Of a stretch of DNA of 43,410 nucleotides, positions 5,968-32,211 are shown in pieces. Below the pieces are notes generated by a model. It was given only the letters and a program-made list of their open reading frames with translations, was not told where the DNA came from and did not search any database. The stretch spans positions 1 to 43,410 of the IMG/VR virus record IMGVR_UViG_3300025848_000064. The stretch is one strand, 5' to 3'. The translations under genes and the position numbers were made by a program. Each line of letters begins with the position of its first letter. The first letter of the stretch is position 1. Origin of the DNA: a virus. Taxonomy: Duplodnaviria > Caudoviricetes.

Positions 5968-5968
5968 C

Positions 5969-7942: not shown

Positions 7943-7943
7943 C

Positions 7944-9299: not shown

Positions 9300-9320
9300 A
9301 GTGCAGGCCTACTCGCTGCT

Positions 9321-9393: not shown

Positions 9394-9615
9394 ATGAAAG
9401 ACAAGGTTGTCGATGGGGTTGTTCAGTACCTGCGTTCCCGCGCCCGTGCGGAGTCGGCTGCGTCCGACCTCCACCCGGATGCGTCGATGCTTGCCAAGGC
9501 GGCGGACCTGATCGACCGCATGGCGACGCAGTTGGCGGAGGCCAAGGAACGCAACGTCCACCTTCAGCGTTCCCTCGGGGAGTACGAGGCGCGGGAGATC
9601 GGGGGCGAGGCGTGA
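9394..9615 (+). CDS. Hypothetical coiled-coil protein
   Basis: Open frame, AADLIDRMATQLAEAKER coil; coupled to the next gene. Confidence 0.65.
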   Translation: MKDKVVDGVVQYLRSRARAESAASDLHPDASMLAKAADLIDRMATQLAEAKERNVHLQRSLGEYEAREIGGEA

Positions 9616-9950: not shown

Positions 9951-9997
9951 ACGCGGTCCCTGGCTACCATGTGTTGACAAACGGGGGTAGTTGCTTG

Positions 9998-10026
9998 TTG
10001 CCGTTCCCGTTGGCTTGGCGTAAAGT
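9998..10026 (+). promoter_or_regulatory. Sigma70-type promoter for the marR-like/integrase pair
   Basis: TTGCCG-17 bp-TAAAGT, then SD AAGGAG and ATG 10049. Confidence 0.5.
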
Positions 10027-10048
10027 GTGCAAAGCAAAGGAGCAACGC

Positions 10049-10396
10049 ATGGCTAGCCAGTCTCTCGACACGTTCGTCAATCAAGTCGCCTACCTTCGGG
10101 ACGCGGTGAACCCGGACATGACGGGCCTTGCGATGGCGATGTTCGCCTACATCGCAAGCCACCCGTTCAACGAGGGTGTTCCCATGTCGAGGGTCGTTGA
10201 CAAGTTCGGGCTGTCGGCCAGCACCGCCAGCCGCAACATCTACCTCCTGTCGAGCGGCTTGGTGCGCCCGACGGAGGGCAGGAAGGGGTTCGGGCTGATC
10301 CGCACCGACACGGCTCCGACGGACCGGCGGGCGTTGCAGGTCTACCTCACCCCCAAGGGACAGCAGGTCGCAAAGGGACTCATGCAGGTGAAGTGA
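10049..10396 (+). CDS. MarR-like winged-helix regulator, probable repressor
   Basis: GLSASTASRNI, GLI...DRRALQVYLTPKG wing motif; directly before the integrase as in temperate T7-like marine podoviruses. Confidence 0.85.
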   Translation: MASQSLDTFVNQVAYLRDAVNPDMTGLAMAMFAYIASHPFNEGVPMSRVVDKFGLSASTASRNIYLLSSGLVRPTEGRKGFGLIRTDTAPTDRRALQVYLTPKGQQVAKGLMQVK

Positions 10397-10397
10397 C

Positions 10398-11348
10398 ATG
10401 AACATCAGGAAGCGGAAGAACTCGTGGCAGGTTGACGGGATGATGGACGGGAAGCGCATCCGCAGGCAGTTCAGGAGCGCGGCGGAAGCGGAGGCGTTCG
10501 TGAAGGCGGGGAGCCGGGAGGAGGCGCGTGAGCGCACCGTCGGGGAGCTGTATTCCCGCGTCTATGCCTCGCGGTGGGCGACGCTCAAGTCCGGGGTGAT
10601 GGCCGCTCTGGGCCAGCGGATCGTCAACAGGCTGGGGGCCGACACGCCGGTGTCCAGGATCGACGCCGGGAGGATCCATGACATGGTCTCCGGGCTGCGC
10701 TCGGCGGGCTACTCGAACTCGACGATCAACCGCTGGGTGTGCGGGCTGAACGTCATGCTGCGCCACGCGGCCGTCGAGGGCTGGATCGACAAGCGGCCGG
10801 AGGTGCGTTCCCTGAAGGAGCCGTCGGGCCGGAACAGGTTCCTGTCCAAGGACGAGGAGCAGGAGATCATCGAGATCATCGGGCGCCAGGATCCCAGGCT
10901 CTCGAAGCTTGTCATGGTCCTCGTTGACACCGGCCTGCGGCTGTCGGAGGCCATCGGGCTGGAGTGGCGGGACATCACCGGCGACCAGTTGACCGTGCAC
11001 GAGACGAAGAACGGATCGTCCCGGTCGGTTCCCCTGACGAGGCGGGCGAGGGAAGTACTTGCTTCACTCGACCGGTCGCACGATCGCCCGTTCTCCTTCA
11101 CGGACAGGCACCACGCCTCACGGGCCTTCTCCCGTGCCCGTGAGCGGTCGTCCATGCGGGGGGACACGGAGGTGGTCATGCACACCCTCCGGCACACCTG
11201 CGCCTCGCGGATGATCCAGAGGGGCGTTCCCGTGGCCGTGGTGTCGGCGTGGCTGGGCCACCGCAGCTTGGCCGTGACCATGCGCTACGCCCACCTGCGG
11301 CCGGACCACCTCCGTGACTACGTCCATGTCTTGGAGCGGTCCGCCTGA
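10398..11348 (+). CDS. int: Tyrosine recombinase / phage integrase
   Basis: TGLRLSE (R), TKNG (K), HTLRHT (HxxR), LGH, MRYAH (Y). Confidence 0.96.
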   Translation: MNIRKRKNSWQVDGMMDGKRIRRQFRSAAEAEAFVKAGSREEARERTVGELYSRVYASRWATLKSGVMAALGQRIVNRLGADTPVSRIDAGRIHDMVSGLRSAGYSNSTINRWVCGLNVMLRHAAVEGWIDKRPEVRSLKEPSGRNRFLSKDEEQEIIEIIGRQDPRLSKLVMVLVDTGLRLSEAIGLEWRDITGDQLTVHETKNGSSRSVPLTRRAREVLASLDRSHDRPFSFTDRHHASRAFSRARERSSMRGDTEVVMHTLRHTCASRMIQRGVPVAVVSAWLGHRSLAVTMRYAHLRPDHLRDYVHVLERSA

Positions 11349-11581: not shown

Positions 11582-11622
11582 GCGGGCGTGGCGAAATTGG
11601 CAGACGCACGAGATTTAGGTTC
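11582..11622 (+). mobile_element. attP core: 5' half of tRNA-Leu(TAG), not a full tRNA
   Basis: GCGGGCG TGGCGAAATTGGCAGACGC A CGAGA TTTAGGT TC gives acceptor 5' strand, Leu-type D arm and TAG anticodon loop, then similarity stops; downstream of int. Confidence 0.85.
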
Positions 11623-11917: not shown

Positions 11918-14335
11918 GTGACTCTGACCCAGCGGCAGCTCGACAAGGAGATGGTTGAGTCCGGCAAGTCTCGCTTCTGGCGACGGACGGAGAAGGCCAA
12001 GAAGGGGGACCGGGAATCGGACACCGACCACGGCACCCGCCTCCTGAACGCGGCCGTCTACCCCGTTGCCGAGGCACTCCGGGAGGAGTTCAAGACCATC
12101 GGCAGGCCGGGCTTCAACAACACCGGCGTCAAGGGGCTCCTGGATTCCGGCATCGACCCGGAGGTCCTGGCGCTCCTGGCCCTCCAGTCCGTCATCGACG
12201 GGATCAGCAAGAAGCAGCGGGCCAGCCGTGTCATGTCGATCATCGGCAGGCGGATCCAGACCGAGGTCCTGCTGGAGCGGCTTGCCGGTGACAAGCCCTT
12301 CGTCCTGAAGACGGTGGCCCGGTGGACGTCCGACCCGCAGTCTGACCTGCGCCGCCGGGCGACGATCAAGAAGATCGTCTCGAACATGAACGAGGAGTGT
12401 GCGGAGCTGGTCCGCAGCGTCACCATCGACGACGCGCTCCTCCTCCGGATGGGCTTCGTCCTCGTCGAACTGATCCGCCGCCACACCGGCCTGATCGAGG
12501 TCCGCAACGTCTCGACCGCGGCCAAGCGCATGACAACCTGGATCGTTCCCACCCAGGAGACGGTGGACTGGATCCGCAACTACGGCTCGTCCTGCGAGTT
12601 CCTCCGCCCCGTCAAGCTGCCGATGGTGGTGCCCCCGTACAACTGGTCCAGCCCGACGGTCGGCGGGTACGCCAACGACCTCGGCGAGGACCTGATCCGT
12701 TCCGAGTCCGGCACCCAGATGGAGTGCGCGACGAAGGAGCAGATGCCGACGGTGTACCGCGTCATCAACGCGATGCAGCGGGTTCCCCTGCGCGTCAACA
12801 CGCAGGTGCTGGAGGTCGTTGACACGCTCTACCGCAACGGCGTCGTCTTCGGCGACCTGCCTCCCATCGAGGACATCCGGGTTCCCCCGAGGCCCAACAT
12901 CCCGTCGAACGACCCGGCCATCAAGCTCTGGCGCCGGGACTGTCACAAGGTCCACGAGGCCAACCGGACCAACGCCGGGCGCCGCATCAACGTGGCCCAG
13001 ACCCTGGCTCTGGCTGAAAGATATTGTGGTGCGAATTTCTTTCTGCCGGTGTGCATGGACTTCCGTGGCCGCGTCTATCCGCAGACGACCTATCTCTCGT
13101 ACCAGGCCGGTGACATCGGCAAGGGCCTGACGTCGTTCGGCATCGGCAAGCCGGTCAAGGTCCATTCCCCCGAGTGGACGGCGCTCCTGCTGGGCGGGGC
13201 AGGGCACATGGGCGTCAAGGGCAGCATCAACCAGCGGATTGCCGAGGCCGACAAGTTCATCCGCTCCGGTGCCGTCACCGCCGTCGTCTCCGATCCCTAC
13301 CAGCACAAGTCGCTGTGGATCGACCGTGACGAGCCGGTGCAGTTCCTGTCGTGGTGCCATGACATCGCCTCCGTCATGGGCGGCGGCAACAGCCACCACC
13401 CCGTCTGGATGGACGGCTCGTGCAACGGGCTCCAGATCATCAGCCTCCTGCTCCGCGACGAGGTCGGCGGGATGCTCACCAACTGCTGCCCGGCAACCCT
13501 CGACACGGCGCCCATCGACATCTATACGGCCGTTGCCAACCGGACCCAGGAACTGCTCTGCCAGGAGCGGGACCCGAAGACCCAGGAGTGGGCCAGGGAG
13601 TGGGTCCGCTACGGGATTGACAGGGCGGCCGTCAAGCGGTGCGTCATGATCGTCCCGTACAACGGCTCGATCCACGCTGGCGTTACCTACATCCGTGACT
13701 GGTACCAGGAGAAGTACCAGAAGGTCGGGGGTCCCTGGAAGGAGCCGACGTACCCGATCGGCTACCTAGCCACCGTGGTGTGGCGGGCCATCGGAGAGAC
13801 CATCCGCAAGGGGACGGAGTTCATGAAGTGGATGCGGGAGGTGCAGAAGGTCTGCAATTCCGCCGGTGTCCAGCCCTCGTGGGTCACCCCGTCGGGCTTC
13901 CTCGTCCACCAGACCTACCACCAGTACGACGCCTGCAACGTGAAGACCACGCTCGGGCGGACGGTCCGGATGTTCCAGCTCCGCAAGGCCAGCAAGCGGG
14001 TCGCCACCCGCAAGCACCTCAACGCGCTGGCCCCCAACTTCATCCACTCCCTCGACGCGGCGGCGGAGATCCTTACGTTCGACGCCCTGCTCTCCGCGAA
14101 GATCGAGAACTTCCTGGGTCAGCACGACTCCTACGGATGCCTCGCGGCCGACACGCCTACCGTTTACCGCGTCATCCGCCGGACCTGGTCGTCGATGTTC
14201 GAGGACGACCTCTTGTCAATCTTCCGCAAGCATGTTCAGCACGAACTTCCGAAGGGCGTGGAACTCCCGCCGGTGCCCCCATACGGATCGCTCGTACCGG
14301 CGGACATCAACAATTCGCCGTACTTCTTTTCCTGA
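11918..14335 (+). CDS. T7-like single-subunit DNA-directed RNA polymerase
   Basis: DFRGRVY, motif A DGSCNGLQ, motif B RAAVKRCVMIVPY, PNFIHSLDAA, motif C HDSY, C-terminal YFFS. Confidence 0.97.
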   Translation: MTLTQRQLDKEMVESGKSRFWRRTEKAKKGDRESDTDHGTRLLNAAVYPVAEALREEFKTIGRPGFNNTGVKGLLDSGIDPEVLALLALQSVIDGISKKQRASRVMSIIGRRIQTEVLLERLAGDKPFVLKTVARWTSDPQSDLRRRATIKKIVSNMNEECAELVRSVTIDDALLLRMGFVLVELIRRHTGLIEVRNVSTAAKRMTTWIVPTQETVDWIRNYGSSCEFLRPVKLPMVVPPYNWSSPTVGGYANDLGEDLIRSESGTQMECATKEQMPTVYRVINAMQRVPLRVNTQVLEVVDTLYRNGVVFGDLPPIEDIRVPPRPNIPSNDPAIKLWRRDCHKVHEANRTNAGRRINVAQTLALAERYCGANFFLPVCMDFRGRVYPQTTYLSYQAGDIGKGLTSFGIGKPVKVHSPEWTALLLGGAGHMGVKGSINQRIAEADKFIRSGAVTAVVSDPYQHKSLWIDRDEPVQFLSWCHDIASVMGGGNSHHPVWMDGSCNGLQIISLLLRDEVGGMLTNCCPATLDTAPIDIYTAVANRTQELLCQERDPKTQEWAREWVRYGIDRAAVKRCVMIVPYNGSIHAGVTYIRDWYQEKYQKVGGPWKEPTYPIGYLATVVWRAIGETIRKGTEFMKWMREVQKVCNSAGVQPSWVTPSGFLVHQTYHQYDACNVKTTLGRTVRMFQLRKASKRVATRKHLNALAPNFIHSLDAAAEILTFDALLSAKIENFLGQHDSYGCLAADTPTVYRVIRRTWSSMFEDDLLSIFRKHVQHELPKGVELPPVPPYGSLVPADINNSPYFFS

Positions 14336-19780: not shown

Positions 19781-20514
19781 TGCGAATCCTGATCGACGGC
19801 GACATCCTGTGCTACACGACGGCTGCCGCGGTCGAGAAGCCCATCGACTGGGGCAACGACTTCTGGACGCTGCACTCGGACTTCGCCGAGGCCAAGCAGC
19901 GGATCGACGTAGACATCGTCGAGTTCGTGGAGACGCTGGGCGGGACGTCGTTCACCGTCTGTCTGTCGGACACGCAGAACTTCCGGAAGTCGGTCTACCC
20001 CGAGTACAAGGCGAACCGGGCGAACGTCCGCAAGCCGGTCGTCTTCCAGGCCCTGCGCGACTACATGATCGAGACCTGGGACTGCGAGTTCTGGCCGAGG
20101 CTTGAGGCCGACGACGTCATGGGAATCCTTGCCACGACCAAGAAGAACTGCGTCATCGTCTCCGCCGACAAGGACCTGCGGACCATCCCGACCAAGGTCT
20201 ACAACCCGAGCAAGCCGGACCTGGGGATCATCGAGGTCACGCAGGCCGAGGCTGACCGGAACCACCTGATCCAGACCCTGACCGGAGACCGTACCGACGG
20301 CTACCCGGGATGCCCCGGGATCGGACCGGCACGGGCGGAGAAGATCGTCGAGGGCGGCTGGGACGCCGTCGTCGAGGCCTTTGTCAAGGCAGGGCTCAAC
20401 GAGCCCGTGGCCCTCACGCAGGCAAGACTTGCCCGGATCCTGCGGAAGGGCGATTACAACCGGAAGACCGGGCAGGTGAAGCTCTGGGCTCCACGAAAGG
20501 TCGCCAATGTCTGA
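19780..20514 (+). CDS. 5'-3' exonuclease (T7 gp6-like)
   Basis: LIDGDIL, NFRK..YPEYKANR, LEADDVMGI, SADKDLRTIP, GDRTDGYPGCPGIG. Confidence 0.95.
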   Translation: MRILIDGDILCYTTAAAVEKPIDWGNDFWTLHSDFAEAKQRIDVDIVEFVETLGGTSFTVCLSDTQNFRKSVYPEYKANRANVRKPVVFQALRDYMIETWDCEFWPRLEADDVMGILATTKKNCVIVSADKDLRTIPTKVYNPSKPDLGIIEVTQAEADRNHLIQTLTGDRTDGYPGCPGIGPARAEKIVEGGWDAVVEAFVKAGLNEPVALTQARLARILRKGDYNRKTGQVKLWAPRKVANV

Positions 20515-20917
20515 ACACCGCCAAGACGACATGAGCATCAAGGACTCCGGCGCCCGCCAGACCTGGGATACCGGGTCCCGCCGGGACACCCGGGAGGGCA
20601 AGGGCCGCTACGACCTGATCCCGTGGGAGATCATCGACGCCGACGCCCGCTACCTGGAGCTGGGCGCCAAGAAGTACGGCGACCGAAACTGGGAGAAGGG
20701 CCAGCCGCTCTCGCGCTACCTGGACTCCGCCTGCCGCCACCTGTCAAAGTTCATGATGGGGCGGCGTGACGAGCCGCACCTGCTGGCCGTGCGCTGGAAC
20801 ATCGCGGCGTACCTGTGGACGCTCAACCGCATCAAGAACGGGGACCTGCCGGAGGCGCTGGACGACACCGGGGAGATCGTCAAGCCGAAGACCCTGTTCG
20901 ATTCTCCGGAAGCCTGA
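20507..20917 (+). CDS. dATP/dGTP diphosphohydrolase-like protein (DUF5664 type)
   Basis: GKGRYDLIP...GAKKYGDRNWEKG...SACRHL...HL..V.WN. Confidence 0.8.
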   Translation: MSEHRQDDMSIKDSGARQTWDTGSRRDTREGKGRYDLIPWEIIDADARYLELGAKKYGDRNWEKGQPLSRYLDSACRHLSKFMMGRRDEPHLLAVRWNIAAYLWTLNRIKNGDLPEALDDTGEIVKPKTLFDSPEA

Positions 20918-20926
20918 GTCATATCT

Positions 20927-21118
20927 ATGGACACTGAGCAACCGCTGCCCGAGTTTCCCCCGATTCCGGAACTACTCCTGGTCGCCCTCGAAGCGCGGTT
21001 TCCGCTGCCCATCCCGGAGCTGTCGATGACCGACCGCGAAATCTGGATGCGGCGCGGCCAGTACTCCGTCATTCAGTTCCTCAAGATCGAGCAGGAATCC
21101 CAACAGAACAAGTGGTAA
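20927..21118 (+). CDS. T7 gp6.5-like conserved protein
   Basis: PPIPELLL..LEARFP...GQYSVIQFL; syntenic position. Confidence 0.6.
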   Translation: MDTEQPLPEFPPIPELLLVALEARFPLPIPELSMTDREIWMRRGQYSVIQFLKIEQESQQNKW

Positions 21119-21128
21119 GGACCCCCAA

Positions 21129-21323
21129 ATGTGCATGAGCGCCCCGAAGATGCCGCCCCCGGCACCGCCGCCCCCACCGGCACCCCCTCCGCCGGTGAAG
21201 ATGGCTAATCGAATGGCGCCCAGCCTGTCGATCCAGCAGCGGCCAAGCCGCGGCGCCCTCGGCAGCTACGAGTCCCTTGTCATCCCCTACCGCGGCACCG
21301 GTGTCAACGTGCCTGGGGCATGA
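21129..21323 (+). CDS. Small Pro-rich virion protein (gp6.7/7.3-like)
   Basis: MC start, Pro-rich, ends GTGVNVP; just before the portal. Confidence 0.65.
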   Translation: MCMSAPKMPPPAPPPPPAPPPPVKMANRMAPSLSIQQRPSRGALGSYESLVIPYRGTGVNVPGA

Positions 21324-22876
21324 CGATGGACGAAGCACCGGCACGGGCCAAGTGGAGCAAGCTTGAGTCCGACCGCCATGTCTACCTGGACCGTGCCCGG
21401 CGCTGCTCCGAGCTGACGCTCCCCTTCATCTACCCTCCCTCCGGCACCACCGGGGCCTCGGAACTACCGACGCCTTACAACAGCCTCGGTGCCCGTGCCG
21501 TCAACAACCTGGCGTCGAAGCTGCTCCTGACGCTGCTTCCGCCGAACACCCCCTTCTTCCGCTTCACCGTCAGCCGCGAGGTCGTCCGGCAGGCCGAGGC
21601 CGCCGAGATGCTCGTGCAGCTCGACCAGGCCTTCGGGGAGATGGAACGTGCCATCGTCGAGGAACTGGAGGCGGAGCCCATTCGCCCGGTCCTGTTCGAT
21701 GCCTTGCGTCACCTGATCGTCGGCGGCAACGGCGTCCTCCGCCTTGACCCCAAGCACGGCTGGCGCTTCTACGCCCTTGACCAGTACGTCGTCGAGCGCG
21801 TCGCGGACACCGTCACCGAGCTGATCCTGAAGGAGAAGGTCTCCAAGGACGCCATTGACAAGGACGTCCTAGACGCCCTCCCCGAGGAAGAGCGACGGCG
21901 CCTCGGCGACTCGGTTGACGTCTACACGGTGTGCTGCCTGGAGGACGGCCGCTACGAATGCCACCAGGAGGTGGCCGGTACCAAGATCCCTGGGACCGAG
22001 GCCTCGTACCTCCCAGACGACTTCCCCTACATCGTCCTCCGCTGGAACCGGATCTCGAACGAGAACTACGGCCGAGGCATCGTCGAGGAGTACCTCGGCG
22101 ACCTGAACAGCCTTGAGGCGATCACCAAGTCGATCGTCGAGTTCAGCCTTGCCGCCAGCCGTCTCCTCTTCTTCGTCCGCCCCAACGGCGCCACGCGCCT
22201 GACGGACGTCCAGAACGCCCCCAACGGCGCCATCAAGATCGGCAACGCCGAGGACGTCACCGTCCTTCAGATGCAGAAGTTCGCAGACTTCAACGTCTCG
22301 ATGAGCGTCGGCACGGCCATCCAGCAGCGCCTGGAACACGCCTTCCTGCTCCGCTCCTCCGTCCAGCGGAACGCCGAGCGCGTCACCGCCACCGAGGTTC
22401 GGATCATGGCGCAGGAGCTTGAGGACGCCCTCGGCGGCGTCTTCTCCTCGCTTGCCGGTGACCTCCAGCTCCCGCTCATCCGGGTGACCCTGGGGCACAT
22501 GCAGAAGAAGAAGAAGCTACGCAAGCTCCCGGAAGGCATCGTCCGCCCGGTCATCATCACCGGCCTGGACGCCCTCGGGCGCGGGCATGAGCTCATGAAG
22601 CTCGACGCATTCGTCTCAGGAATCGGGCAGACGCTTGGTCCCCAGGCGCTGGCCCAGTACCTGGACGTCACCGGATACATGGCCGCTCGGGCGGCGGCCC
22701 TTGGCCTTGACGTCGCTGGGATTGTCAAGAGCCCCGAACAGATCGCCCAGGAACAGCAGGCCGCCCAGCAGCAGGCGGCACAGCAGCAGATCGCTCCGGA
22801 GCTCATCCGCGCAGGCACCCAGATCGGGGTCGCGCAGATGAAGCAGCAGGGCGCACAAGGAGTCACTGAAGCATGA
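21320..22876 (+). CDS. Portal / head-tail connector (T7 gp8-like)
   Basis: GARAVNNLASKLLLTLLPPNTPFFR, YGRGIVEEYLGDL, ERVTATEVR, ELEDALGGVFS. Confidence 0.97.
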   Translation: MTMDEAPARAKWSKLESDRHVYLDRARRCSELTLPFIYPPSGTTGASELPTPYNSLGARAVNNLASKLLLTLLPPNTPFFRFTVSREVVRQAEAAEMLVQLDQAFGEMERAIVEELEAEPIRPVLFDALRHLIVGGNGVLRLDPKHGWRFYALDQYVVERVADTVTELILKEKVSKDAIDKDVLDALPEEERRRLGDSVDVYTVCCLEDGRYECHQEVAGTKIPGTEASYLPDDFPYIVLRWNRISNENYGRGIVEEYLGDLNSLEAITKSIVEFSLAASRLLFFVRPNGATRLTDVQNAPNGAIKIGNAEDVTVLQMQKFADFNVSMSVGTAIQQRLEHAFLLRSSVQRNAERVTATEVRIMAQELEDALGGVFSSLAGDLQLPLIRVTLGHMQKKKKLRKLPEGIVRPVIITGLDALGRGHELMKLDAFVSGIGQTLGPQALAQYLDVTGYMAARAAALGLDVAGIVKSPEQIAQEQQAAQQQAAQQQIAPELIRAGTQIGVAQMKQQGAQGVTEA

Positions 22877-23637
22877 GCACCGAAGTCCAGGTCCCTTTCG
22901 CAGCAAAGCCCGAGGGTCCCACCGGACCGAATGACGCCGCCTACCTCGCACGGGCGGAAGCCGCAGAGGCCGCCCGCAACGGCCAGCCACCGGCAGAGCC
23001 CGCCGCGGAGGCGCCGAAGACCTTCGCCGGGAAGTTCAAGTCGGCCGAGGACCTGGAGAAGGCCTACGTCGAGCTCCAGGCCAAGCTCGGGGCGCCCGCA
23101 GACAAGGCGGAGGAGAAGCCCCAGGACGCCCCAAAGGGCCTGACCACCGAGACCTTCTCCGGCTACGTCGAGGAGTACGCCAAGTCTGGCGCCTTGTCCG
23201 ACAAGTCCTACGCGGAGCTGGAGAAGCTCGGCGTCTCCCGCGACCTGGTCGATTCCTACATCGAGGGCCGCAAGTCGGCGGCAGTCGCGGCGGAGAACTC
23301 CGTGTACGGCGAGGTCGGCGGCCGCGATCAGTACCAGTCGATGGTCTCGTGGGCGGCGCAGGCGCTCGCTCCCGAGGAGATCCAGGCCTACAACGAAGTC
23401 ATCAACTCAGGCGACCCCAAGAAGACGCTCTTCGCCGTCCGCAGCCTCGCTGCCCGGTTCAAGGAGAGCAACTCGTCTGGTCCCGCCCGCGTGGTCGAGG
23501 GCAGGCGCACCGACGCATCCGACCGCTTCCAGTCCCGTGCCGAGATGGTGGCCGCCATGAGCGACCCGCGCTACAGCAAGGATCCGGCGTACCGGAGCGC
23601 GGTCATCGAGAAGCTCAAGAACTCGAACCTCGACTGA
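22873..23637 (+). CDS. Capsid scaffolding protein (T7 gp9-like)
   Basis: AGKFKSAEDLEKAY, VGG..QY..MVSWA, FQSRAEMVAAMSDPRYSKDPAYR. Confidence 0.93.
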   Translation: MSTEVQVPFAAKPEGPTGPNDAAYLARAEAAEAARNGQPPAEPAAEAPKTFAGKFKSAEDLEKAYVELQAKLGAPADKAEEKPQDAPKGLTTETFSGYVEEYAKSGALSDKSYAELEKLGVSRDLVDSYIEGRKSAAVAAENSVYGEVGGRDQYQSMVSWAAQALAPEEIQAYNEVINSGDPKKTLFAVRSLAARFKESNSSGPARVVEGRRTDASDRFQSRAEMVAAMSDPRYSKDPAYRSAVIEKLKNSNLD

Positions 23638-24113
23638 TGCGGCTGGCCGTCGTCTGTCTCGCCGCAGGCCTGGGTGCCTGCAACCCTGTCGAGCGCATCG
23701 CCAGGGACACCAACGAGATCCGGACCCAGGCCCAGGCGCTTGTCAGGCACGGCAACGACACCGGCGACGCGGTCGTCGTGTCTCGTGCAAGCAAGATCGA
23801 CAGCCTTGCATCCGACATCCACGGTGAGCTTCCGAACGTGCAGGCCCGCCCGTCGGACTTCATGGACCTCCTGAAGATCGGCGCCATCGGCCTGGTGCTC
23901 GTCGCCGTGGCCGTGATCCTCTGGCAGACCGGCATCGGCACTGCCATCCGAATCGCCGTCGGCTGGATCCCCCGGCGCAAGCAGGAGGAGGCCAAGTTCA
24001 TCGAGGCAGTCCTGGACCCAAGCAAGCCCGAGAGCGCTCGGGAGTACATCGCCGCCCGTCGTGCGGCAGACCCTGAACTGAATGCCGCACTTGCGGCAAA
24101 GGAAAAGCACTAA
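23637..24113 (+). CDS. Predicted lipoprotein with an internal transmembrane helix
   Basis: Signal MRLAVVCLAAGLGA-C lipobox; helical region; hydrophobic IGAIGLVLVAVAVILW. Confidence 0.7.
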   Translation: MRLAVVCLAAGLGACNPVERIARDTNEIRTQAQALVRHGNDTGDAVVVSRASKIDSLASDIHGELPNVQARPSDFMDLLKIGAIGLVLVAVAVILWQTGIGTAIRIAVGWIPRRKQEEAKFIEAVLDPSKPESAREYIAARRAADPELNAALAAKEKH

Positions 24114-24208
24114 TGGAATCTTTCCTCGGCAACGTGTTCTTCGCCCTGCTGGTCGGCTGCTGCGGTTTCGCGGCGGCCTACTACCTGTGCAAGACCCGCC
24201 GAATCTGA
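24113..24208 (+). CDS. 31-aa single-TM peptide (absent from the ORF track)
   Basis: MESFLGNVFFALLVGCCGFAAAYYLCKTRRI*; TAATG coupling; AAGGA upstream. Confidence 0.6.
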   Translation: MESFLGNVFFALLVGCCGFAAAYYLCKTRRI

Positions 24209-24378
24209 ATCACATCACCCCCCGCTGGCTGGGGTGAACGTCCGTCTTGGAAACAGTCCGAGACCGACTCGCGGCCCGATGCGTCGGACACCCGTGGAGG
24301 AGGATCGCTGACTCGCCCGCAGAACGGCTTGTCAAGCCAGCGCGTTTCTTACACACACTCACATAGGAGTCCATTCAA

Positions 24379-25476
24379 ATGGGCAACTGGGATATCACTC
24401 CCTCCCGCTTCGGCTCGGTCAATGGCGCAGCCGACAAGTGGGAACTCTTCCTGAAGGTGTTCGGCGGCGAAGTCCTTTCGCTGTTTGAGCAGAAGACGGT
24501 GATGAAGCCTCTCATCACCATCCGCACGATCAGCCAGGGCAAGTCGGCGACCTTCCCGCTCTACGGGTCGGTGGCCGCCAAGTTCCACAAGCCCGGCGAG
24601 AACATCCTGGAGGGCACCAACGGGTACCTCTCCGAGATGAAGTTCGCCGAGCGCGTGCTGAACATCGACGGCCAGCTCATCTCGGCTTCGTTCGTTTCCG
24701 ACGTCGACGAGATGCTCAACCACTGGGACGCTCGCCGTCCGGTGGCCGAGGAGATCAGCCGCCAGCTGGCGTACTACTTCGACCGCGTCGCCATCCACAC
24801 GATGATCGCCGCCGCCCGTACCAGCACTGCTCCCGTGACGTACAAGACGTCCGGCAACAAGGACCTGGTCGGTACGACGATCGACATCGGTGCTTCGTAC
24901 ACCGCGGCGAACCTCATCAGCAAGGCTTACGACGCTGCTGCGGAACTGGACGCCAAGGATGTTGCGGAGGAGGGCCGGTTCATGCTGGTCAGTCCGACGA
25001 ACTACTGGAGCCTGGTGAACAGCCAGAGCCAGTACATCCAGAGCGTCGACTACTCGCCCGGCAACAGCAACGTGGCCGCAGGCAAGCTGTACCAGATCGC
25101 TGGCTTCCGCCTTGTCAAGACCCCGCTCCTGCCCAACGTCAACATGATCGCTGACGCTGACTCCGGAACGTCGGGCACGCAGATCGCATCGACGTACCAG
25201 ACGCTTGCTGGTGGCAAGGCCACGACGGCTGAAGCGATGCCCAACCACAGCATCAAGAACAGCCCGTTCGGCACCACCAACGGCTACGCCGCCGACTTCT
25301 CCAAGACCGTGGCTGTCTGCGGTCACGGCGCGTCGGTCGGCTGCGTCCAGAAGCATGACATCGCTACCGAGACTGAGCGCAAGATCGAGTACCAGGGCAC
25401 CCTGATGCTCGGCAAGCTCATGACCGGCTTCGGCGTCCTGCGTCCGGAGTGCGCGGTCGAGCTCAAGCTCACCTGA
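24379..25476 (+). CDS. Major capsid protein (T7 gp10-like)
   Basis: LFLKVFGGEVL, RTISQGKSATFP, GFGVLRPECAVEL; SD TAGGAG. Confidence 0.97.
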   Translation: MGNWDITPSRFGSVNGAADKWELFLKVFGGEVLSLFEQKTVMKPLITIRTISQGKSATFPLYGSVAAKFHKPGENILEGTNGYLSEMKFAERVLNIDGQLISASFVSDVDEMLNHWDARRPVAEEISRQLAYYFDRVAIHTMIAAARTSTAPVTYKTSGNKDLVGTTIDIGASYTAANLISKAYDAAAELDAKDVAEEGRFMLVSPTNYWSLVNSQSQYIQSVDYSPGNSNVAAGKLYQIAGFRLVKTPLLPNVNMIADADSGTSGTQIASTYQTLAGGKATTAEAMPNHSIKNSPFGTTNGYAADFSKTVAVCGHGASVGCVQKHDIATETERKIEYQGTLMLGKLMTGFGVLRPECAVELKLT

Positions 25477-25536
25477 TCCTTACCGTCCTGGGGCCTAACC
25501 GCCCCAGGGCGGATTCACTCGCTCCTTTCTGCCTCG

Positions 25537-25572
25537 GCCCCGGTGGGGCCATAAACCCCATCGGGGCTTTCC
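25537..25572 (+). terminator. Post-capsid terminator (T-phi equivalent), short U tract
   Basis: GCCCCGGTGGGG / CCCCATCGGGGC stem then TTT; preceded by a second hairpin at 25483-25512. Confidence 0.75.
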
Positions 25573-26139
25573 ATGCCAACTGACACAACCCTCCTCCAGG
25601 CGGTCAACACGATGCTCTCGTGCATCGGCGAAGCCCCCGTCAACACGCTCGACAGCGGGGTACCGACCGACGCGGTCATCGCCCAGAGCATCCTTGACGA
25701 GACCAGCCGGGAGGTGCAGTCGCGGGGGTGGTGGTTCAACACCATGAAGGGCCTGAGCATGGTCCGCCAGGCCAGCGGCAAGATCGCCGTTCCGCCCAGC
25801 TACGTCACCATCGACCACGCGGAGATGGACATCGTCAAGCGCGGCGGGTTCGTCTACGACCTTGCCGAGAACACCGACGTCTTCGAGAAGGACATCGAGG
25901 ACGTCGAGGCGATCATCCTCCTGGACTTCACCGACATCCCCGAGCCGGTCCGGCGCTACGTCGTCATGCGGGCATCCCGTGCCTTCTTCGAGCGCATGGT
26001 CGGCGACGCGAACCGGGCAGCGATGCTCCAGTCCGAGGAGGCCCAGGCCTACCTCAGCCTGCTCCAGTACGACAGCGACCAGGCGGACATGAACATCTTC
26101 AACAACGACTTCGTCAACTACCAGAGGCGCCGCTTCTGA
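25573..26139 (+). CDS. Tail tubular protein A (gp11-like)
   Basis: LQAVNTMLSCIGEAPVNTL, REVQSRGWWFN, YVVMRASR. Confidence 0.93.
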   Translation: MPTDTTLLQAVNTMLSCIGEAPVNTLDSGVPTDAVIAQSILDETSREVQSRGWWFNTMKGLSMVRQASGKIAVPPSYVTIDHAEMDIVKRGGFVYDLAENTDVFEKDIEDVEAIILLDFTDIPEPVRRYVVMRASRAFFERMVGDANRAAMLQSEEAQAYLSLLQYDSDQADMNIFNNDFVNYQRRRF

Positions 26140-28538
26140 TGCTGGTGTCGATCCCTGTCCCGAACCTCATCCAGGGCGTCTCGCAGCAGCCGCCCCAGAT
26201 GCGGCTACCGAGCCAGGCATCCGAGCAGGTCAACGGCTACTCCTCCCCGACCGACGGCCTGACGAAGCGCCCACCGACCCAGTTCGTCGGCGTCCTTGAC
26301 AACGGCCCGACCGACAGCACTTCGCTCTACCACTTCATCGACCGGGACACATCCGAGAAGTACGTCATGTCCATCAGCGGCCCGACGCTGAAGGTATGGA
26401 CGCTCACCGGTGTCCCCGTGCCCGTCTACGGCGCCAACTGGAGCGACGCAGTCCCGGCTTCGTGGACGACATACATGAGCGGAGCAGACTCATCCAACAC
26501 CCGGATGATGTCCATCGCCGACACGACCTTCGTTGTCAACCGGAATGTGGCGGTGGAGGCGGACACCACGGCATCGGCTACCCGTGCCCAGGAAGCCCTC
26601 ATCACCGTCACGCAGGGCTCGTACAAGTGCACCTACACGATCTGGTTCTCGATCAACGGGGCCACCGAGACCAAGCTTGAGGTCAAGACCTGGGATGGAA
26701 AGACCGTCGAGGCCGGTGAGTACAACTCAATCAAGACCGACGACATCGCCCAACAGTTCTTCGGCATGTCCTGGGGCGGCTTCACCATCCAGCGGTTCGG
26801 CTCGACGCTGCATGTCAAGGTGACGACCGTCACCGACACCTTCACCATCCGCACCGCCGACTCCGGCGGCGACACGCTCCTGCTGGCCGCCAAGCGCACG
26901 GTCCCCCGCATCTCCGACCTTCCGCTCCAGGGCCCCAACGGCTTCAAGATCGCCGTCAACCCTGATCCTGAGAAGGAAGCAGGCGACTACTGGGTGGAGC
27001 TTGTCAAGGACACCCTGAGTGCCAACGGCTACTGGCGAGAGACGGTCGCCCCGAACACCCTGACGACCCTCAAGGCGTCAACGATGCCGTTCATCGTCCG
27101 CCGCAAGGTGGACACGACAAACGGCGTCTTCTTCTCGATTGAGCCCGGTCCCTGGGCGACCCGCGCCGTCGGCGACCTGACGACCAACCCGTGGCCGTCG
27201 TTCGTCGGCCAGAAGATCCAGGACTTCTTCTTCTACAAGAACCGCCTGAGCTTCCTGGCCTCCGACAAGGTCATCATGAGCGAGGCGGGGAACTACTACA
27301 ACTTCTTCCGAAGCGCCATCGCGGTCGTCCTCGACAGCGACCCCATCGACATCGGGACCCTGAACACCTCGGTCAGCACCCTCCGGGCGGCCATCCCGTA
27401 CAACGAGTCGGTCATCATCTTCTCCGACCAGGCGCAGTTCGTCCTCCGCACCGCCAACGACGAGCCCCTGACGTCGGCGACCGCCATGAGCGTCAAGACG
27501 ACCGAGTTCTCCTCGGCGTCGGCCCTGTGCAGGCCCGTGTCCACCGGCCGCTCGATCCTGTTCATGCAGGCCGATGCCCGGTACGCGGGTATGCGCGAGT
27601 ACTCGGCCATGTCAACCTCCGGCGACAGCTACGACGCCGTGGACCTGACCAGCCATGTCAATGCCTACATCGTCGGCAGCCCGCAGAGCCTGACCGTGAG
27701 CTCCTACGACAACCTCGCGGTTGTCGCCACCTCCGAGACCACGAACCCGACCGGCGGCGGCATCCCGAGCCTGTGGAACTACAAGTGGCTCCTGAACGGC
27801 AACGAGAAGATCCAGAGCGCCTGGAGCCGCTGGACCTTCCCGGGATGCACCCGGATCGTCGGCATGGAGTGGTTCAACAAGCGCCTGTACATGGTGGTCA
27901 TCCGGAACTCCCAGGCCTACCTGGAGTTCATGGACTTCGAGATCCGAGTCCCAGACCCGGCGAACTTCCTCCCGCACATCGACTGCCTCGTCAAGGTGCC
28001 TTCGGCTACCTGGGACGGGTCCTCGTCGGTGGTCCAGACCTCCGTCGGTGCCGAGGTAGCCAACTTCCAGAACCTCCCCGCGGTAGCGGTGCTCGACGGC
28101 AAGAAGGTTGACATCCTTTCTAAGACCTCCAGCACCGTCACCATCGCCGGTAACGCCACGGCTCTGCCCGCCTACGTCGGCATCCCGTACACGCTCGAAT
28201 ACACCTTCAGCCCCGTCTACCTCCGGCAGCAGAACGTGCCGGTTCTTGACGGCCGCCTGACGCTGACCTACGGCACCGTGTCGTTCTCCGACACCGGCTA
28301 CTTCAAGGTTGGCATCTCGACGAGATACCGCACCCCGTACTCCTACGAGTACTTCGGCGGGTCGTTCGACGCTAGCTACCTGACGGACGGCGTCAACCTG
28401 GAGCGCGGAACATTCCGCTACCCGATCCACGCCCGCAACGAGGACGCGACGATCACGCTGTCCAACGACACGCACTTCCCCGTCCGCCTCAACTCAGCGA
28501 GCTTCGAGGCCCAGTTCGTCACGAGGTCACGGGTATGA
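26139..28538 (+). CDS. Tail tubular protein B / nozzle (gp12-like)
   Basis: IPVPNLIQGVSQQP, GLTKRPPT, PSFVG, FFYKNRL, QSAWSRW; true start ATG 26139. Confidence 0.95.
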   Translation: MLVSIPVPNLIQGVSQQPPQMRLPSQASEQVNGYSSPTDGLTKRPPTQFVGVLDNGPTDSTSLYHFIDRDTSEKYVMSISGPTLKVWTLTGVPVPVYGANWSDAVPASWTTYMSGADSSNTRMMSIADTTFVVNRNVAVEADTTASATRAQEALITVTQGSYKCTYTIWFSINGATETKLEVKTWDGKTVEAGEYNSIKTDDIAQQFFGMSWGGFTIQRFGSTLHVKVTTVTDTFTIRTADSGGDTLLLAAKRTVPRISDLPLQGPNGFKIAVNPDPEKEAGDYWVELVKDTLSANGYWRETVAPNTLTTLKASTMPFIVRRKVDTTNGVFFSIEPGPWATRAVGDLTTNPWPSFVGQKIQDFFFYKNRLSFLASDKVIMSEAGNYYNFFRSAIAVVLDSDPIDIGTLNTSVSTLRAAIPYNESVIIFSDQAQFVLRTANDEPLTSATAMSVKTTEFSSASALCRPVSTGRSILFMQADARYAGMREYSAMSTSGDSYDAVDLTSHVNAYIVGSPQSLTVSSYDNLAVVATSETTNPTGGGIPSLWNYKWLLNGNEKIQSAWSRWTFPGCTRIVGMEWFNKRLYMVVIRNSQAYLEFMDFEIRVPDPANFLPHIDCLVKVPSATWDGSSSVVQTSVGAEVANFQNLPAVAVLDGKKVDILSKTSSTVTIAGNATALPAYVGIPYTLEYTFSPVYLRQQNVPVLDGRLTLTYGTVSFSDTGYFKVGISTRYRTPYSYEYFGGSFDASYLTDGVNLERGTFRYPIHARNEDATITLSNDTHFPVRLNSASFEAQFVTRSRV

Positions 28539-28987
28539 GCCACGTTCGCCCGTCCATCGAGACGGACGTCCGCTACATCGCCGACAGGATTCGCCAGGCC
28601 GACCTCGACGAGCTCGATCTATGGGATGTCCTCCCGACCGAAGCCCTGACTTCGGGATACCGCAACAGCCTCCAGCCCATGACGATCATCAGCGACTCCA
28701 TGCCGTGCGCGATGTTCGGGGTGACCGAGCCGTTGCCTGGTTCCGGCTTCGGGATCGTGTGGCTCCTCGGGACGGACACCCTCTTCTCGGCAAAGGTCCC
28801 GTTCCTGCGCCAGAGCTACCTCTGGCTTCATCACTGCTGCCGCCCGTTCTCCGCCGTCGGGAACTGGGTCGATTCCAGAAACACCAAGCACCTGCGCTGG
28901 CTTCGCTGGCTCGGCTTCGAGGTCACGCAGGAGATCACAGTCAAGAACGTCCCCGTCCTCTTCCACCACCTGAAGGTCAAAGACTAA
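28535..28987 (+). CDS. gp13-like protein (acetyltransferase-like fold)
   Basis: IRQADLDE, AMFGV, VWLLGT, NTKHLRWLRWLGF; synteny. Confidence 0.8.
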   Translation: MSHVRPSIETDVRYIADRIRQADLDELDLWDVLPTEALTSGYRNSLQPMTIISDSMPCAMFGVTEPLPGSGFGIVWLLGTDTLFSAKVPFLRQSYLWLHHCCRPFSAVGNWVDSRNTKHLRWLRWLGFEVTQEITVKNVPVLFHHLKVKD

Positions 28988-29689
28988 ATGTGCCCCCCAC
29001 TCCTTGCCGCGATCCCGTTCGCTTCGACGATCGGGACGGCGCTCGGAACCAGCGCGGCCGCCGGTGGCCTGCTCATCGCCGGTACGGCCATGTCAGGCGC
29101 GGCCGCAGGCCTGTCCTACATGGGACAGAAGCAGGCCGTTGACCAGCAGAACGCATTCCAGAAGTACCAGTACGAGGAGACGCAGCGGCTTGCCAACGCC
29201 AACCTCCTCCAGCAGTACCGCCAGATCGGCCTGCGCCAGCAGGAGGAACGCGCCGCCTTCGCCCAGCAGATCCAGCAGATCGAGATGGAGGGCAGGCAGG
29301 CGATGGGGCAGGCGGCCGTCCAGCAGGGCCAGAGCGGCATCTACGGCAACTCCTACGACATCCTGCTGATGGACTTCCGCAGGCAGCAGATCGAGGCGGT
29401 CGGCAACGCCGAGCTCAACTACGCCATGCGGGACCGGCAGATGAACCTTGAGGCCCAGGGCTTCCGCAGCCAGGCCGAGGCGCAGGTCATCCGGGCCATG
29501 CCGCAGTACCAGGCCAGCCCGTCGATCATCTCGCCGATCCTCCAGACCTTCGGCTCGGGTCTCGGGATGGCGGCCAACTTCGCCGGTCCCGGCTTCTTTG
29601 CGCCTGAAGCAGCGCAGGCCTCTCGCCAGTACTCGAACCCGTACTTCGGTGGGCGGTTCGGTCGCAACTTCAACTGGGGCACAACCTGA
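28988..29689 (+). CDS. Internal virion protein (gp14-like)
   Basis: MC start, Ala/Gly hydrophobic N-terminus, Gln-rich coil, SGIYGNS; synteny. Confidence 0.75.
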   Translation: MCPPLLAAIPFASTIGTALGTSAAAGGLLIAGTAMSGAAAGLSYMGQKQAVDQQNAFQKYQYEETQRLANANLLQQYRQIGLRQQEERAAFAQQIQQIEMEGRQAMGQAAVQQGQSGIYGNSYDILLMDFRRQQIEAVGNAELNYAMRDRQMNLEAQGFRSQAEAQVIRAMPQYQASPSIISPILQTFGSGLGMAANFAGPGFFAPEAAQASRQYSNPYFGGRFGRNFNWGTT

Positions 29690-32211
29690 TGCGATCGCGC
29701 TACGCAACCGGCGACAACATCCCGCAGGTCGCCCTTCAGCCGTCGGCCAGCCCGATCAGCCTGAACGTGCTTCCGGCGGCCGGGCAGCCGATCCGCGGAG
29801 CCAACGACCTCATCCAGATCGCCGAGGCACTGGCCCCCTTCAACCAGGGCCTCCTGGCGTTCGGCAAGCGGGCCGTGGATGCGGAGAACGAGCGGGCCGC
29901 AATCGCCGGGTCCACGCTCGACTTCGGCCAGGTGCAGGCGCAGAACGTGCCAATCGAGCAGCGGGCGGCAGAGCTGAACCGGCAGTTCAAGTCGGTCATC
30001 GAGAAGTCAGGAGTCTCGGACGCCGCCAACCCGTTCTTCCAGATCGCGGCCCGCCAGAACTTCGGCCGCAAGCTCGCCTTCGACTACCGGGCGGCGATGT
30101 ACGCCAAGCGAGAGCAGGTGACGGATCCCGACAACCCGCTCTCCTACCAGGAGGCTTCCGCCCAGGTTGCCCAGGAGGTCCTCGGGGAAGCCCTCGTCGG
30201 CGACTTCTACGGCTTTGCCGGGTTCCGCGAGGTCGCCCAGAGGGTGGACGCGGAGCTCATGAACGAGTTCGCGGTCGAGTCGGTCCGCCGCAAGGAGTCC
30301 AAGGGCACCCTGTTCGCCAAGCAGGCCCTCACGGCCGCGGTGGTGCAGGGCGACGTCGAGACGGCCAACAGGTCGTGGGCCGACTTCCAGACCAAGGTCA
30401 CCGACCCCGTCAAGGTCCGAGCCGCCTTCATGGGCTCGGCCAAGGACATCCTGATGTCGGCACCGGACCTGGAGCAACTGACTAGCAGACTGGACAGTTT
30501 GCGGTCCATCCAGTACGGCAACCAGTCCGTGAGCGACAACATGGACCTCGTGACCGAGCTCGTGCAGCTCGAAGACCAGGCCAGGAAGACGATCGTCGCC
30601 AAGATCGACCAGGAGAACAGGGTCGGCGAGATGGCCTTCGACAACGCCAAGCGGGCGATGTTCGGCCAGGGATTCGTCTCCGAGGCGTACCGCCACATCC
30701 AGACCCAGGGCGCAGAGATCGCCGGTGGCAGCCTTGCAGACTGGGCATCCGTCTACGTCGATGACCTGGCCCAGAAGAACGGGTTCAGCGACTCGGTGAG
30801 GGAACGCCTGAAGGAGTTCGCCATCGAGCGAGTCCAGGCACTCTCTGCAAGGACGGATGCCATGTCAGCGGCCCGGTCGAAGGACGCGCTGAGGGAGGTC
30901 TACCGGGGCATCTACGACGGATCGCTCCCCTCCGAGGAGGCGGTGTTTGCTCGTGGCCTGGAGCTCGGCGTCAGTCCAGACGACCTCATCGCAGCCGTGG
31001 AGCTCCGAGCCCGCCGTGGCGGTGCCGTGCAGACAGCCATTGAGCGAACCCTGGAAGAGACCATCGGGCAGAACGCCGGGCTCCTCAGCTCCCACATGAA
31101 CGCCAACGGCCTGTCGCCGTTCGGTCTTGACGGACGGCCCACCGCTTCTGGAGCACTGGAGTCCAACCGCCACGCCATGCGGATCCAGGCGAACCTCATG
31201 CTGGAGGCCAACCGGTTCACCGCAGACGAGGTTCCCGACAAGCAGGGCAAGCTCTTCTCCGAGTATGCGAAGGAAGGCCAGCAGCAGGCCGCTGCTGCCG
31301 TGCGCCGCTTCATGGCCGACCGCAACGCCGAGCTTGTCCAAGGCGTCATGGACGAGTCAGACCAGGCGGTCACCGCCGGGAAGATCAGTATGCGCGGGTC
31401 GTTCACGAAGCCGGAAGAAGACAAGGCGGCCATCAACTGGAAATCCTGGCAGGACCTCGGCAACCTCGTCTCAGAGGTGTCCAGGGGAACCGTCAGCGTC
31501 TCCGACAGGTCGGTCCCCCCGCAGATGGAGCAAATCTTCCGCGACCGGATGGACCAGCTTGCCAAGGACTACGACATCGGCTTCCTCTCGGGTACCCGAG
31601 GAAGCGTCGAGCAGCTCCGCGTCGCCGTGGCCGAGCGCCTGTTCACGGCCATGAAGGACGGCGGCGACATCGAGACGAAGGACCGGGACATCATCGGCGG
31701 CATCTCTGCCGCAGCCGCTTTCATCATTCCAGCAGCGACCGACTTCTCTGTCGGAGCCGATCTGCCGAGAGCCGCCTACTCCTACTGGAGCACGTTCAAG
31801 AACGTGGACCAGATCCGGGAGGACTACGCCAACGTCATGCGCCTCGGCGGCCTGACCCTCGACCACATCTTGCAAGACCGTGACCAGGAGGGCCTGCCGG
31901 TGTTCGGGCTCACCCTCCCCAAGACCAAGCAGGAGGCCATGAAGGCCGCCTTCGCCATCCCGATGGTCCAGTCACTCGACGAGCTGCGCGACTACGGCAA
32001 GGTCTCGGCGGTCCTCAAGCGCCTTGGGCTCACCGACAACGAGATGCCGCAGTTCATCCAGGCCCAGCGGATCCTCTTCGAGATCCGCCGCGTCGGCAAG
32101 CGGTTCGAGGTGCCCGCATCCGTGTCGTACACGACCCCCGAGCAGCTTGAACAGGCCAAGAGCGCCTACTTCCAGAGCCTCGAATCAGCCAAGCAGAAGA
32201 TCGGTCAATGA
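29689..32211 (+). CDS. Internal virion protein (gp15-like)
   Basis: 840-aa helical protein, QIAEALAPFN, ANPFF; synteny. Confidence 0.7.
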   Translation: MRSRYATGDNIPQVALQPSASPISLNVLPAAGQPIRGANDLIQIAEALAPFNQGLLAFGKRAVDAENERAAIAGSTLDFGQVQAQNVPIEQRAAELNRQFKSVIEKSGVSDAANPFFQIAARQNFGRKLAFDYRAAMYAKREQVTDPDNPLSYQEASAQVAQEVLGEALVGDFYGFAGFREVAQRVDAELMNEFAVESVRRKESKGTLFAKQALTAAVVQGDVETANRSWADFQTKVTDPVKVRAAFMGSAKDILMSAPDLEQLTSRLDSLRSIQYGNQSVSDNMDLVTELVQLEDQARKTIVAKIDQENRVGEMAFDNAKRAMFGQGFVSEAYRHIQTQGAEIAGGSLADWASVYVDDLAQKNGFSDSVRERLKEFAIERVQALSARTDAMSAARSKDALREVYRGIYDGSLPSEEAVFARGLELGVSPDDLIAAVELRARRGGAVQTAIERTLEETIGQNAGLLSSHMNANGLSPFGLDGRPTASGALESNRHAMRIQANLMLEANRFTADEVPDKQGKLFSEYAKEGQQQAAAAVRRFMADRNAELVQGVMDESDQAVTAGKISMRGSFTKPEEDKAAINWKSWQDLGNLVSEVSRGTVSVSDRSVPPQMEQIFRDRMDQLAKDYDIGFLSGTRGSVEQLRVAVAERLFTAMKDGGDIETKDRDIIGGISAAAAFIIPAATDFSVGADLPRAAYSYWSTFKNVDQIREDYANVMRLGGLTLDHILQDRDQEGLPVFGLTLPKTKQEAMKAAFAIPMVQSLDELRDYGKVSAVLKRLGLTDNEMPQFIQAQRILFEIRRVGKRFEVPASVSYTTPEQLEQAKSAYFQSLESAKQKIGQ

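Follow-up and report, generated by a model that had tools for sequence, protein, structure and literature searches.

A conserved element in the capsid 3' untranslated region of a temperate T7-like phage, a candidate antisense RNA to early ribosome-binding sites

Introduction

T7-like phages are the textbook example of infection timed by polymerases and inhibitor proteins, and T7 itself shuts off early transcription with proteins. The locus described here raises the question of whether the 3' end of a late structural message may also act back, as RNA, on the translation of early genes. The window (the whole stretch of DNA analysed, a 43.4-kb virus record with 64.6% G+C) contains, between the major capsid gene and the first tail gene, an interval that a first-pass annotation read as a small RNA antisense to early-gene leaders, through which the capsid message would turn off early translation. 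Taken as a whole, that reading is partly supported by the results below: the pairing goes beyond chance, but the covariation goes only halfway.

Results

The phage and its likely host

The gene order is that of a T7-like phage, running from terminase (523-2202) through small early genes (3472-9299), regulators and integrase (9394-11348) and a single-subunit RNA polymerase (11918-14335) to replication genes, portal, scaffold, capsid (24379-25476) and tail protein A (from 25573). On the basis of the single-subunit RNA polymerase, the T7-type order and the two features below, the phage is temperate and Autographiviridae-like.

10398-11348: integrase (PHROG 1)
11582-11622, plus strand: attP-like 41-nt copy of the 5' half of a tRNA-Leu, adjoining the integrase

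All four genomes with an exact match to the 41-nt attP copy are Planctomycetota MAGs, three of them named Phycisphaerales or Phycisphaeraceae. Because the copy matches the tRNA-Leu of these MAGs, the host is likely to belong to the Phycisphaerales (Planctomycetota), a group that none of the papers listed by one of our literature searches mentions. The 16S rRNA of the candidate host MAGs ends GGATCACCTCCTTTCT; RNase E is encoded in all four, and Hfq gave no match in any of the four. A prophage search of the genome contigs with a capsid alignment found none.

Architecture of the capsid 3' untranslated region

We refer below to clade A, the window's own group (capsids 82-100% identical), its sister clade B (40-45%) and a clade C.

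24379-25476, plus strand: major capsid gene (PHROG 267, E 8.7e-64), whose mRNA has the element as its 3' UTR
25483-25512, plus strand: hairpin 1, 12 bp by folding, then an invariant GGAUUC junction; compensatory at 7 of 12 pairs, with 100% of cells paired across 10 sequences
25513-25535, plus strand: single-stranded tract with the anti-leader seed ACUCGCU and the anti-Shine-Dalgarno (anti-SD) block CUCCUUUCU; identical in L003 and L006
25536-25568, plus strand: hairpin 2, 13 bp by folding; 5 of 12 pairs compensatory; ends 4 nt before the tail-gene ATG
25573-26139, plus strand: tail tubular protein A gene (PHROG 446), without an upstream SD in clade A

None of 200 shuffles folds as well as 25460-25590 (z = -4.79). 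The fold gives 12 bp at 25483-25512 and leaves 25513-25535 essentially open, its sole helix being 2 bp around UCCUUUCU; the first-pass annotation, which had described a hairpin there and an open tract at 25516-25532, where we find CACTCGCTCCTTTCTGC essentially unpaired, was right on both counts. The anti-SD block is identical to the host 16S tail. The second hairpin had been taken for a terminator at 25537-25567, and here only the hairpin stands: it is followed by just three U's (CUUUCC, then AUG), and terminator calling did not report it as an intrinsic terminator with a U tract. Its copies in L040 and L044 also have no U tail. Hairpin 2 is likely a 3' barrier or a weak terminator, and a nuclease-barrier 3' end at this position is possible.

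No host-type (sigma-70) promoter was found in 20000-30000, and hence none ahead of the element, which argues that the element comes from the capsid mRNA. Contigs from two freshwater RNA runs, which as assemblies carry no information on transcript ends or strand, include stretches of the capsid gene (one contig stops at 25490), and none spans the tract or the 9310 region described below. Rfam yields no gathering-level match in the window or in five related loci; around the capsid gene there are two chance-level matches, the best in 24100-25700 being PhotoRC-I (E 2.8).

The capsid 5' leader (24215-24378) is itself conserved in L002, L003 and L006 and partly in L004, and contains two copies of ACTCGC (24267 and 24311), one of which is not kept in L006. 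Its fold (24240-24378) is no better than that of shuffles (z -1.1), and it has no Rfam match. In L002 the leader is identical to that of the window and the capsid protein 88% identical, apparently a sign of recombination among these phages.

Early leaders and their ribosome-binding sites

3456-3474, plus strand: leader and ribosome-binding site (RBS) of the first early gene (AAA+ ATPase, 3472-4749, ATG at 3472); motif also in L008 and L239
4805-4874, plus strand: early sigma-70 promoter TTGACA-17-GATGAT, 5' hairpin and RBS AGAAAGGCGAGU of gene 4872
5808-5829, plus strand: RBS GGAGAAAGCGAGUGAG of gene 5827; kept in L008
6258-6334, plus strand: early promoter TTGACG-17-GATGAT, 5' hairpin and RBS AGAAAGCGAGUAGCGAGU of gene 6332; kept in L008
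6946-6970, plus strand: canonical strong SD of gene 6965/6968, the strongest tract duplex among 14 early starts (-27.8)
8178-8199, plus strand: RBS AAGGAAGCGAGUGAA of gene 8197

The three complements claimed for the tract are all present, namely GCAGAAAGGCGAGT at 4858-4871 before ATG 4872, GCAGAAAGCGAGT at 6312-6324 and AGAAAGCGAGTG at 5810-5821 before 5827. The pairings of 14 and 13 at the first two sites have to be shortened to about 12 and 11, because their first two bases (GC) lie inside the 5' hairpins of the 4872 and 6332 leaders themselves. Two more leaders, at 3456-3471 (before ATG 3472) and 8178-8192 (gene 8197), carry the motif, and sigma-70-type promoters precede three of the five leaders (called at 4805 and 6258, read by eye at 3370). 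When starts are curated by hand, 5 of 14 early ones have GCGAGT no more than 25 nt away, against 0 of 33 others (Fisher p=0.0013).

The same arrangement of a 5' hairpin followed by AGAAAG(x)CGAG is found in unrelated viral contigs, where an ATG stands 4-10 nt downstream of 20 of 26 distinct motif sites against a background of 9%; on this ground the motif is a ribosome-binding site in its own right, used by unrelated phages. Its AGAAAG and GAG parts pair with the 16S tail around an unpaired C. More generally, the early RBSs (AGAAAG-C-GAGU in clade A, GAAAG-U-AGG in its sister) are imperfect SDs in which a single base, here called the discriminator, has no partner in the 16S tail. That GCGAG is simply the host's usual SD was rejected: in a 400-kb sample of the host genome G009, with gene starts from a rough caller, its frequency is 13 of 297 both in called upstream regions and in coding controls, against 29 and 1 for AGGAG. 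Minus-strand leaders were also rejected as an explanation of the inverted copies, since by eye no ATG on that strand follows 25516-25532 or 9311-9327.

Several further features of these leaders may be recorded. A hairpin-AGAAAGCGAG-ATG leader, often directly 3' of promoter-like sequence, recurs in unrelated contigs L010, L011, L013, L019, L021, L022, L025, L028, L029, L032, L033, L035 and L036 as a shared phage translation-start module; L013 also holds an anti-leader copy, perhaps no more than another leader on the opposite strand. In the window an A-tract with a CCCTACGGG dyad (3312-3333, 4749-4772 and 6200-6222) precedes each early promoter; kept in L008 and L239, it reads as a minus-strand terminator or as an operator. 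The early regions of G010 and G027 have SD-less ACACACAC leaders ahead of early genes, which suggests hosts with different initiation rules.

Pairing of the tract with early leaders

The mean duplex energy of the tract on the five leaders is -22.6 kcal/mol, a value that none of 1000 dinucleotide shuffles reaches; nor do any of 1000 do as well on the five leaders when the anti-SD block is held fixed and the rest of the tract is shuffled. For the three promoter-first genes, which were chosen without the motif, 3 of 1000 shuffles reach the tract, and the other nine early starts show no excess pairing (337 of 1000 as good). Each GCGAGU leader binds the tract at -21 to -24 kcal/mol, against -7 to -12 for the 16S tail and -6 to -13 for sister-clade tracts; the 3456 leader (-22.8 kcal/mol) also forms 12 contiguous pairs with the predicted RNA at 9310. 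When the whole element is cofolded with accessibility taken into account, early starts occupy ranks 2-8 of 47, all five GCGAGU leaders included, in agreement with the annotation's expectation that early leaders would rank at the top; rank 1 is the primase start at 15719, a middle gene whose start is uncertain.

Scanned against the five leaders, 12,464 plus-strand 24-mers from outside the early genes place the one at 9306 first and the one at 25515 third, and the tract's best genomic 15-mer match is the 9311 seed (12 of 15 bases). An unrestricted genome-wide duplex scan has coding sites at ranks 1-3, and 7 of its top 22 are start regions. The 16S tail alone favours early starts to a similar degree (p 4.6e-5, against 9.4e-5 for the tract) because early genes have strong SDs and most late ones weak, with mean 16S-tail binding of -14.2 for early and -7.6 for late starts. 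The tract is complementary to early translation starts beyond chance, and the signal specific to it resides at the five GCGAGU leaders.

The element across relatives

The 46 loci with a capsid relative, many of them redundant, comprise 28 with the complete hairpin-tract-hairpin (5 clade A, 23 clade B), 13 complete loci without it (10 of clade C, L004 and L005, whose capsid at 63% is closer than that of clade B, and L061) and 5 truncated at the edge of a contig. G010, G027, G028 and G029 (33-40%) lack it too. Clade C and L004 have hairpin 1 and a U-rich tail and nothing else, and more distant relatives have plain hairpins or terminators after the capsid gene. In an alignment of 10 clade A and B sequences, leaving out near-duplicates, truncated loci and element-less loci, 12 of 24 pairs change on both sides, for a structure derived from the same 10 sequences; none of 500 shuffles reaches this, and slid controls drop to 37-61% paired. 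A model built from the alignment scores at least 87 bits in 16 of 39 sources, the training set being partly among them.

Within clade A the tract is identical in the window, L003 and L006, with 4-fold sites in the latter two only 57% and 44% identical to the window. Hairpin 2 is near-identical in this clade as well, so the invariance could owe something to strains having recently exchanged the entire UTR. The annotation's expectation that pairing would be conserved in relatives is thus borne out in clade A by an unchanging tract, but no compensatory change between tract and leader was seen within that clade, and the clade B tract is a generic anti-SD. In clade B (capsid ~43% identical) the leaders have changed to GAAAGUAGG, and the tract reads AUUCCUCCUUUCC or nearly so; it is a simple anti-SD that follows a GGAAAC-looped stem, an arrangement that looks much like the 16S 3' end. 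The tract of L050 is AUUCACUCCUUUCC, from which the clade A tract would follow by a short insertion creating ACUCGCU. The clade A tract pairs at -21.8 with A leaders and -9.5 with B leaders; clade B tracts reach -8 to -11.5 on B leaders, no better than the 16S tail (-10.9). Fine-scale cognate matching in clade B is weak: for 2 of 3 lineages the cognate tract is the best B tract, and its advantage over the 16S tail never exceeds 0.3 kcal/mol. Covariation of the capsid tract is one-sided: clade B tracts do not track their own leaders.

The companion element at 9310

9297-9364, plus strand: predicted sRNA-1, with -10-like TAAAGT (9297-9302), open seed CUACUCGCU (9309-9317) and called terminator stem with U tract (9318-9354)

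The capsid hairpin had been counted as the second terminator preceded by ACTCGC. The other member of that pair is sound, as ACTCGC at 9311 directly precedes the called terminator 9318-9354, but hairpin 2 is not convincing as an intrinsic terminator. The likeness extends to the fold, for 25513-25572 forms an open 5' seed and one hairpin, as 9309-9364 does. We examined 32 loci with an integrase relative, of which 19 reach the 9310-type region. Fourteen clade B loci carry CCTACTTTC immediately upstream of the early terminator, three clade A loci (on two contigs) carry ACTCGCTGCTCTCC, and two clade C loci are without a seed. All 6 clade B copies that were aligned are directly preceded by a promoter pattern, CTAGCA-17-TAnnnT; its counterpart in L124 is TTGGCC-18-TACCAT, and the window copy shows just the -10-like TAAAGT. 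A pattern scan for the 9310 seed returned 22 stretches, 2 of them recognised as relatives (L106 and L121).

Early leaders of clade B read GAAAGTAGG. When leaders selected by their motif (9 from clade A, 29 from clade B) are crossed with each RNA, clade A 9310 seeds bind at -22 to A leaders and at -11 to -13 to B leaders, and clade B seeds at -9 to -13 to A leaders and -16 to -19 to B leaders, with 9-11 contiguous Watson-Crick pairs. The 9310 seed switches with the leaders in both clades, a clean reciprocal covariation that justifies the first-pass annotation in having singled out this element. By its features (a promoter of its own in the sister clade, an open seed and an intrinsic terminator) it is predicted to be an independently transcribed sRNA, and we consider it probable that this RNA is antisense to early leaders. 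The 9310 element is a stronger case than the capsid element.

Some side observations concern the same early regions. The 9310-type terminators of clades B and C share a loop GATTACGC (L125:8061-8170, L132:7898-8007, L135:8601-8710) that is complementary to a GCGTAAT loop repeated in early-leader hairpins and in hammerhead-like units, so a second, loop-loop contact is possible. The latter units, with cores GCCCGAAAC ... CTGAYGA.GGGC, are repeated between early genes of clades B and C (G001:C1 at 26764, 27502, 28385 and 29150; G003:C1 at 21825 and 22872; one copy on the reverse strand of G005) and do not occur in the window. We take them to be hammerhead-like from the core pattern, Rfam giving no gathering-level match; by analogy they may cut early mRNA as RNase III sites do in T7. 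ATTCCC is dense and strand-biased in the early regions of G001, G003 and G005 (10, 25 and 15 on the coding strand, 3, 0 and 3 on the other), and shows no bias in the window (1 and 1).

Discussion

The observation itself, in its structure, coordinates and leader matches, is confirmed. The capsid element is real and conserved, its match to early ribosome-binding sites is non-random, and a switch of early translation is plausible. Because the tract is complementary to early RBSs, we suggest that the capsid RNA is likely a late brake on early protein synthesis, in the form of a processed antisense RNA, and we put the probability of this prediction at about 0.5. The RNA would act in trans late in infection and block ribosome loading on early and some middle mRNAs, either after release by a cut at the invariant GG/AUUC junction, which fits the preference of RNase E, or within the whole capsid mRNA. 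A cut there would yield an RNA of ~60 nt, seed and hairpin, built like the 9310 RNA. Pairing would cover the early SDs and the strong canonical SDs (6968, 7189, RNA polymerase, 15361), and late genes would largely escape because most late starts bind the 16S tail weakly. We posit that the 9310 RNA reads the discriminator base of the early RBSs in both clades, and that in clade A an ancestral anti-SD tract gained the ACUCGCU seed, by which it would out-compete the 16S tail at five leaders by ~12 kcal/mol. A division of labour is likely, with the 9310 RNA, made by host polymerase early or in the prophage state, limiting early genes first, and the capsid RNA reinforcing the shut-off late. Bulged duplexes usually want a chaperone, and the lack of an Hfq match in the candidate MAGs weighs against them unless the RNA is abundant. 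It is tempting to go further and to imagine an all-RNA timer, in which two mimics of the 16S tail, one transcribed from a promoter of its own where the early operon ends (9310) and one cut from the capsid mRNA, read the discriminator base and switch off early translation while the SD-poor late genes are immune, but we hold this larger scheme to be doubtful.

Among other interpretations, the one that deserves most attention, although we think it unlikely, is an ordinary capsid mRNA end like T-phi of T7, in which hairpin 1 and a pyrimidine tail are a degenerate terminator, hairpin 2 serves as a stabiliser, early genes are regulated by the 9310 RNA alone, and the complementarity arises incidentally where a pyrimidine tract faces purine-rich SDs, with some contribution from an ancient copy of, or conversion by, the 9310 element. 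It would account for the bare hairpin 1 and U-rich tail of clade C and L004, for the plain hairpins or terminators of distant relatives and for sister-clade tracts that pair no better than the 16S tail, and ACTCGC does arise in 51 of 1000 dinucleotide shuffles of the tract. A terminator tail, however, has no need of 22 invariant bases, and a C-rich tract serves poorly as one; moreover, among 1000 shuffles that preserve the anti-SD, none pairs as well with the leaders. A general anti-SD decoy, in which the hairpin and GGAUUC-CUCCUUUC mimic the 16S 3' end and titrate any mRNA with a strong SD (phage early, middle or host), with SD-poor late genes escaping and the GCGAGU match secondary, strikes us as improbable. 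The identity of the block with the 16S tail speaks for it, as do the sister-clade elements, which read GGATTCCTCCTTTCC behind a GGAAAC-loop stem like the last 16S helix, and the good pairing of the RNA polymerase, 15361 and primase starts (-18.6 to -24.5). The tract reaches -21 or better on 3.7% of 297 called host starts, yet the median is only -11.4, and the tract of G001 has no preference for early starts (p 0.2).

Control in cis of the capsid-to-tail ratio, by which tract and hairpin 2 would mask the tail-gene start in read-through mRNA, is more improbable still: hairpin 2 does end 4 nt before ATG 25573, and in folds the sister-clade tract can pair with AGGAA before the tail gene, around hairpin 2, but the clade A tail gene has no SD and its start lies near the bottom of the ranking (-3.3), and yet the tract is invariant. 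We give very little credence to GCGAGT/ACTCGC being a DNA site, operator or roadblock, for a phage protein that binds it in either orientation. Its copies do lie just 3' of three early promoters and, inverted, before two hairpins, with two more ACTCGC in the capsid leader (24267, 24311); against this, the motif is not palindromic, it keeps an RBS-like spacing to start codons in unrelated phages too (the 20 of 26 sites above), the inverted copies sit in open RNA regions, and one capsid-leader copy is lost in L006.

If the antisense reading is true, a late structural mRNA 3' end that feeds back on early translation would be an RNA layer tied to capsid output, and an example of a phage exploiting mimicry of the 16S 3' end, with clades A and B offering two naturally orthogonal seed-leader sets. 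Our literature search, mostly outside subscription journals and without supplements, returned no description of a capsid-3'UTR anti-leader RNA, and the words "capsid", "early gene" and "T7-like" are all absent from the accessible text of a 2025 review (PMC12197685).

Comparison with known systems places the element among several familiar kinds of RNA. We take hairpin 2 to resemble the T-phi terminator, which lies between genes 10 and 11 of T7, the same position; the capsid element differs in lacking a U tract and in possessing both a further hairpin upstream and a conserved anti-SD tract. The C4 antisense RNA of P1/P7 and the CI RNA of P4 are phage-encoded trans RNAs whose short open segments pair with repeated sites in their own early or lytic leaders; they are processed, tRNA-like, and act in lysogeny, mainly via termination. 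The capsid element would share with them trans pairing, through a short open segment, with repeated early leaders of its own phage, and differs in lying in a late 3' UTR, in targeting RBSs through an anti-SD block and in having no Rfam match. The sar and OOP RNAs are cis-encoded. In the accessible text of the same review, P22 sar, lambda OOP and aQ, and BTP1 STnc6030 are antisense RNAs to one gene each, sar blocking translation initiation of ant (PMC12197685). The silencing of phage genes by a phage RNA through base pairing, proposed here, would be alike, whereas the capsid element stands 17-22 kb from five or more targets and pairs with them imperfectly. As far as its accessible text goes, AdiZ, a bacterial 3'UTR-derived sRNA, is likewise a seed and 3' hairpin; it is released by RNase E, represses other mRNAs in trans and needs Hfq (10.1101/2025.06.06.658255); here the parent is a phage capsid mRNA, the release is our proposal, and no Hfq was found in the 4 candidate MAGs. 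The temperate T7-like phage LUZ100, according to the available part of its description, has an integrase and a regulator upstream of the RNA polymerase and unexpected non-coding transcription downstream of the capsid gene (PMC10134795); that RNA lies on the opposite strand over structural genes, in contrast to the sense-strand anti-leader proposed here. The same text treats lysogeny control in temperate autographiviruses as still hypothetical (PMC10134795), and the 9310 RNA would be a concrete candidate for early-gene silencing in these phages.
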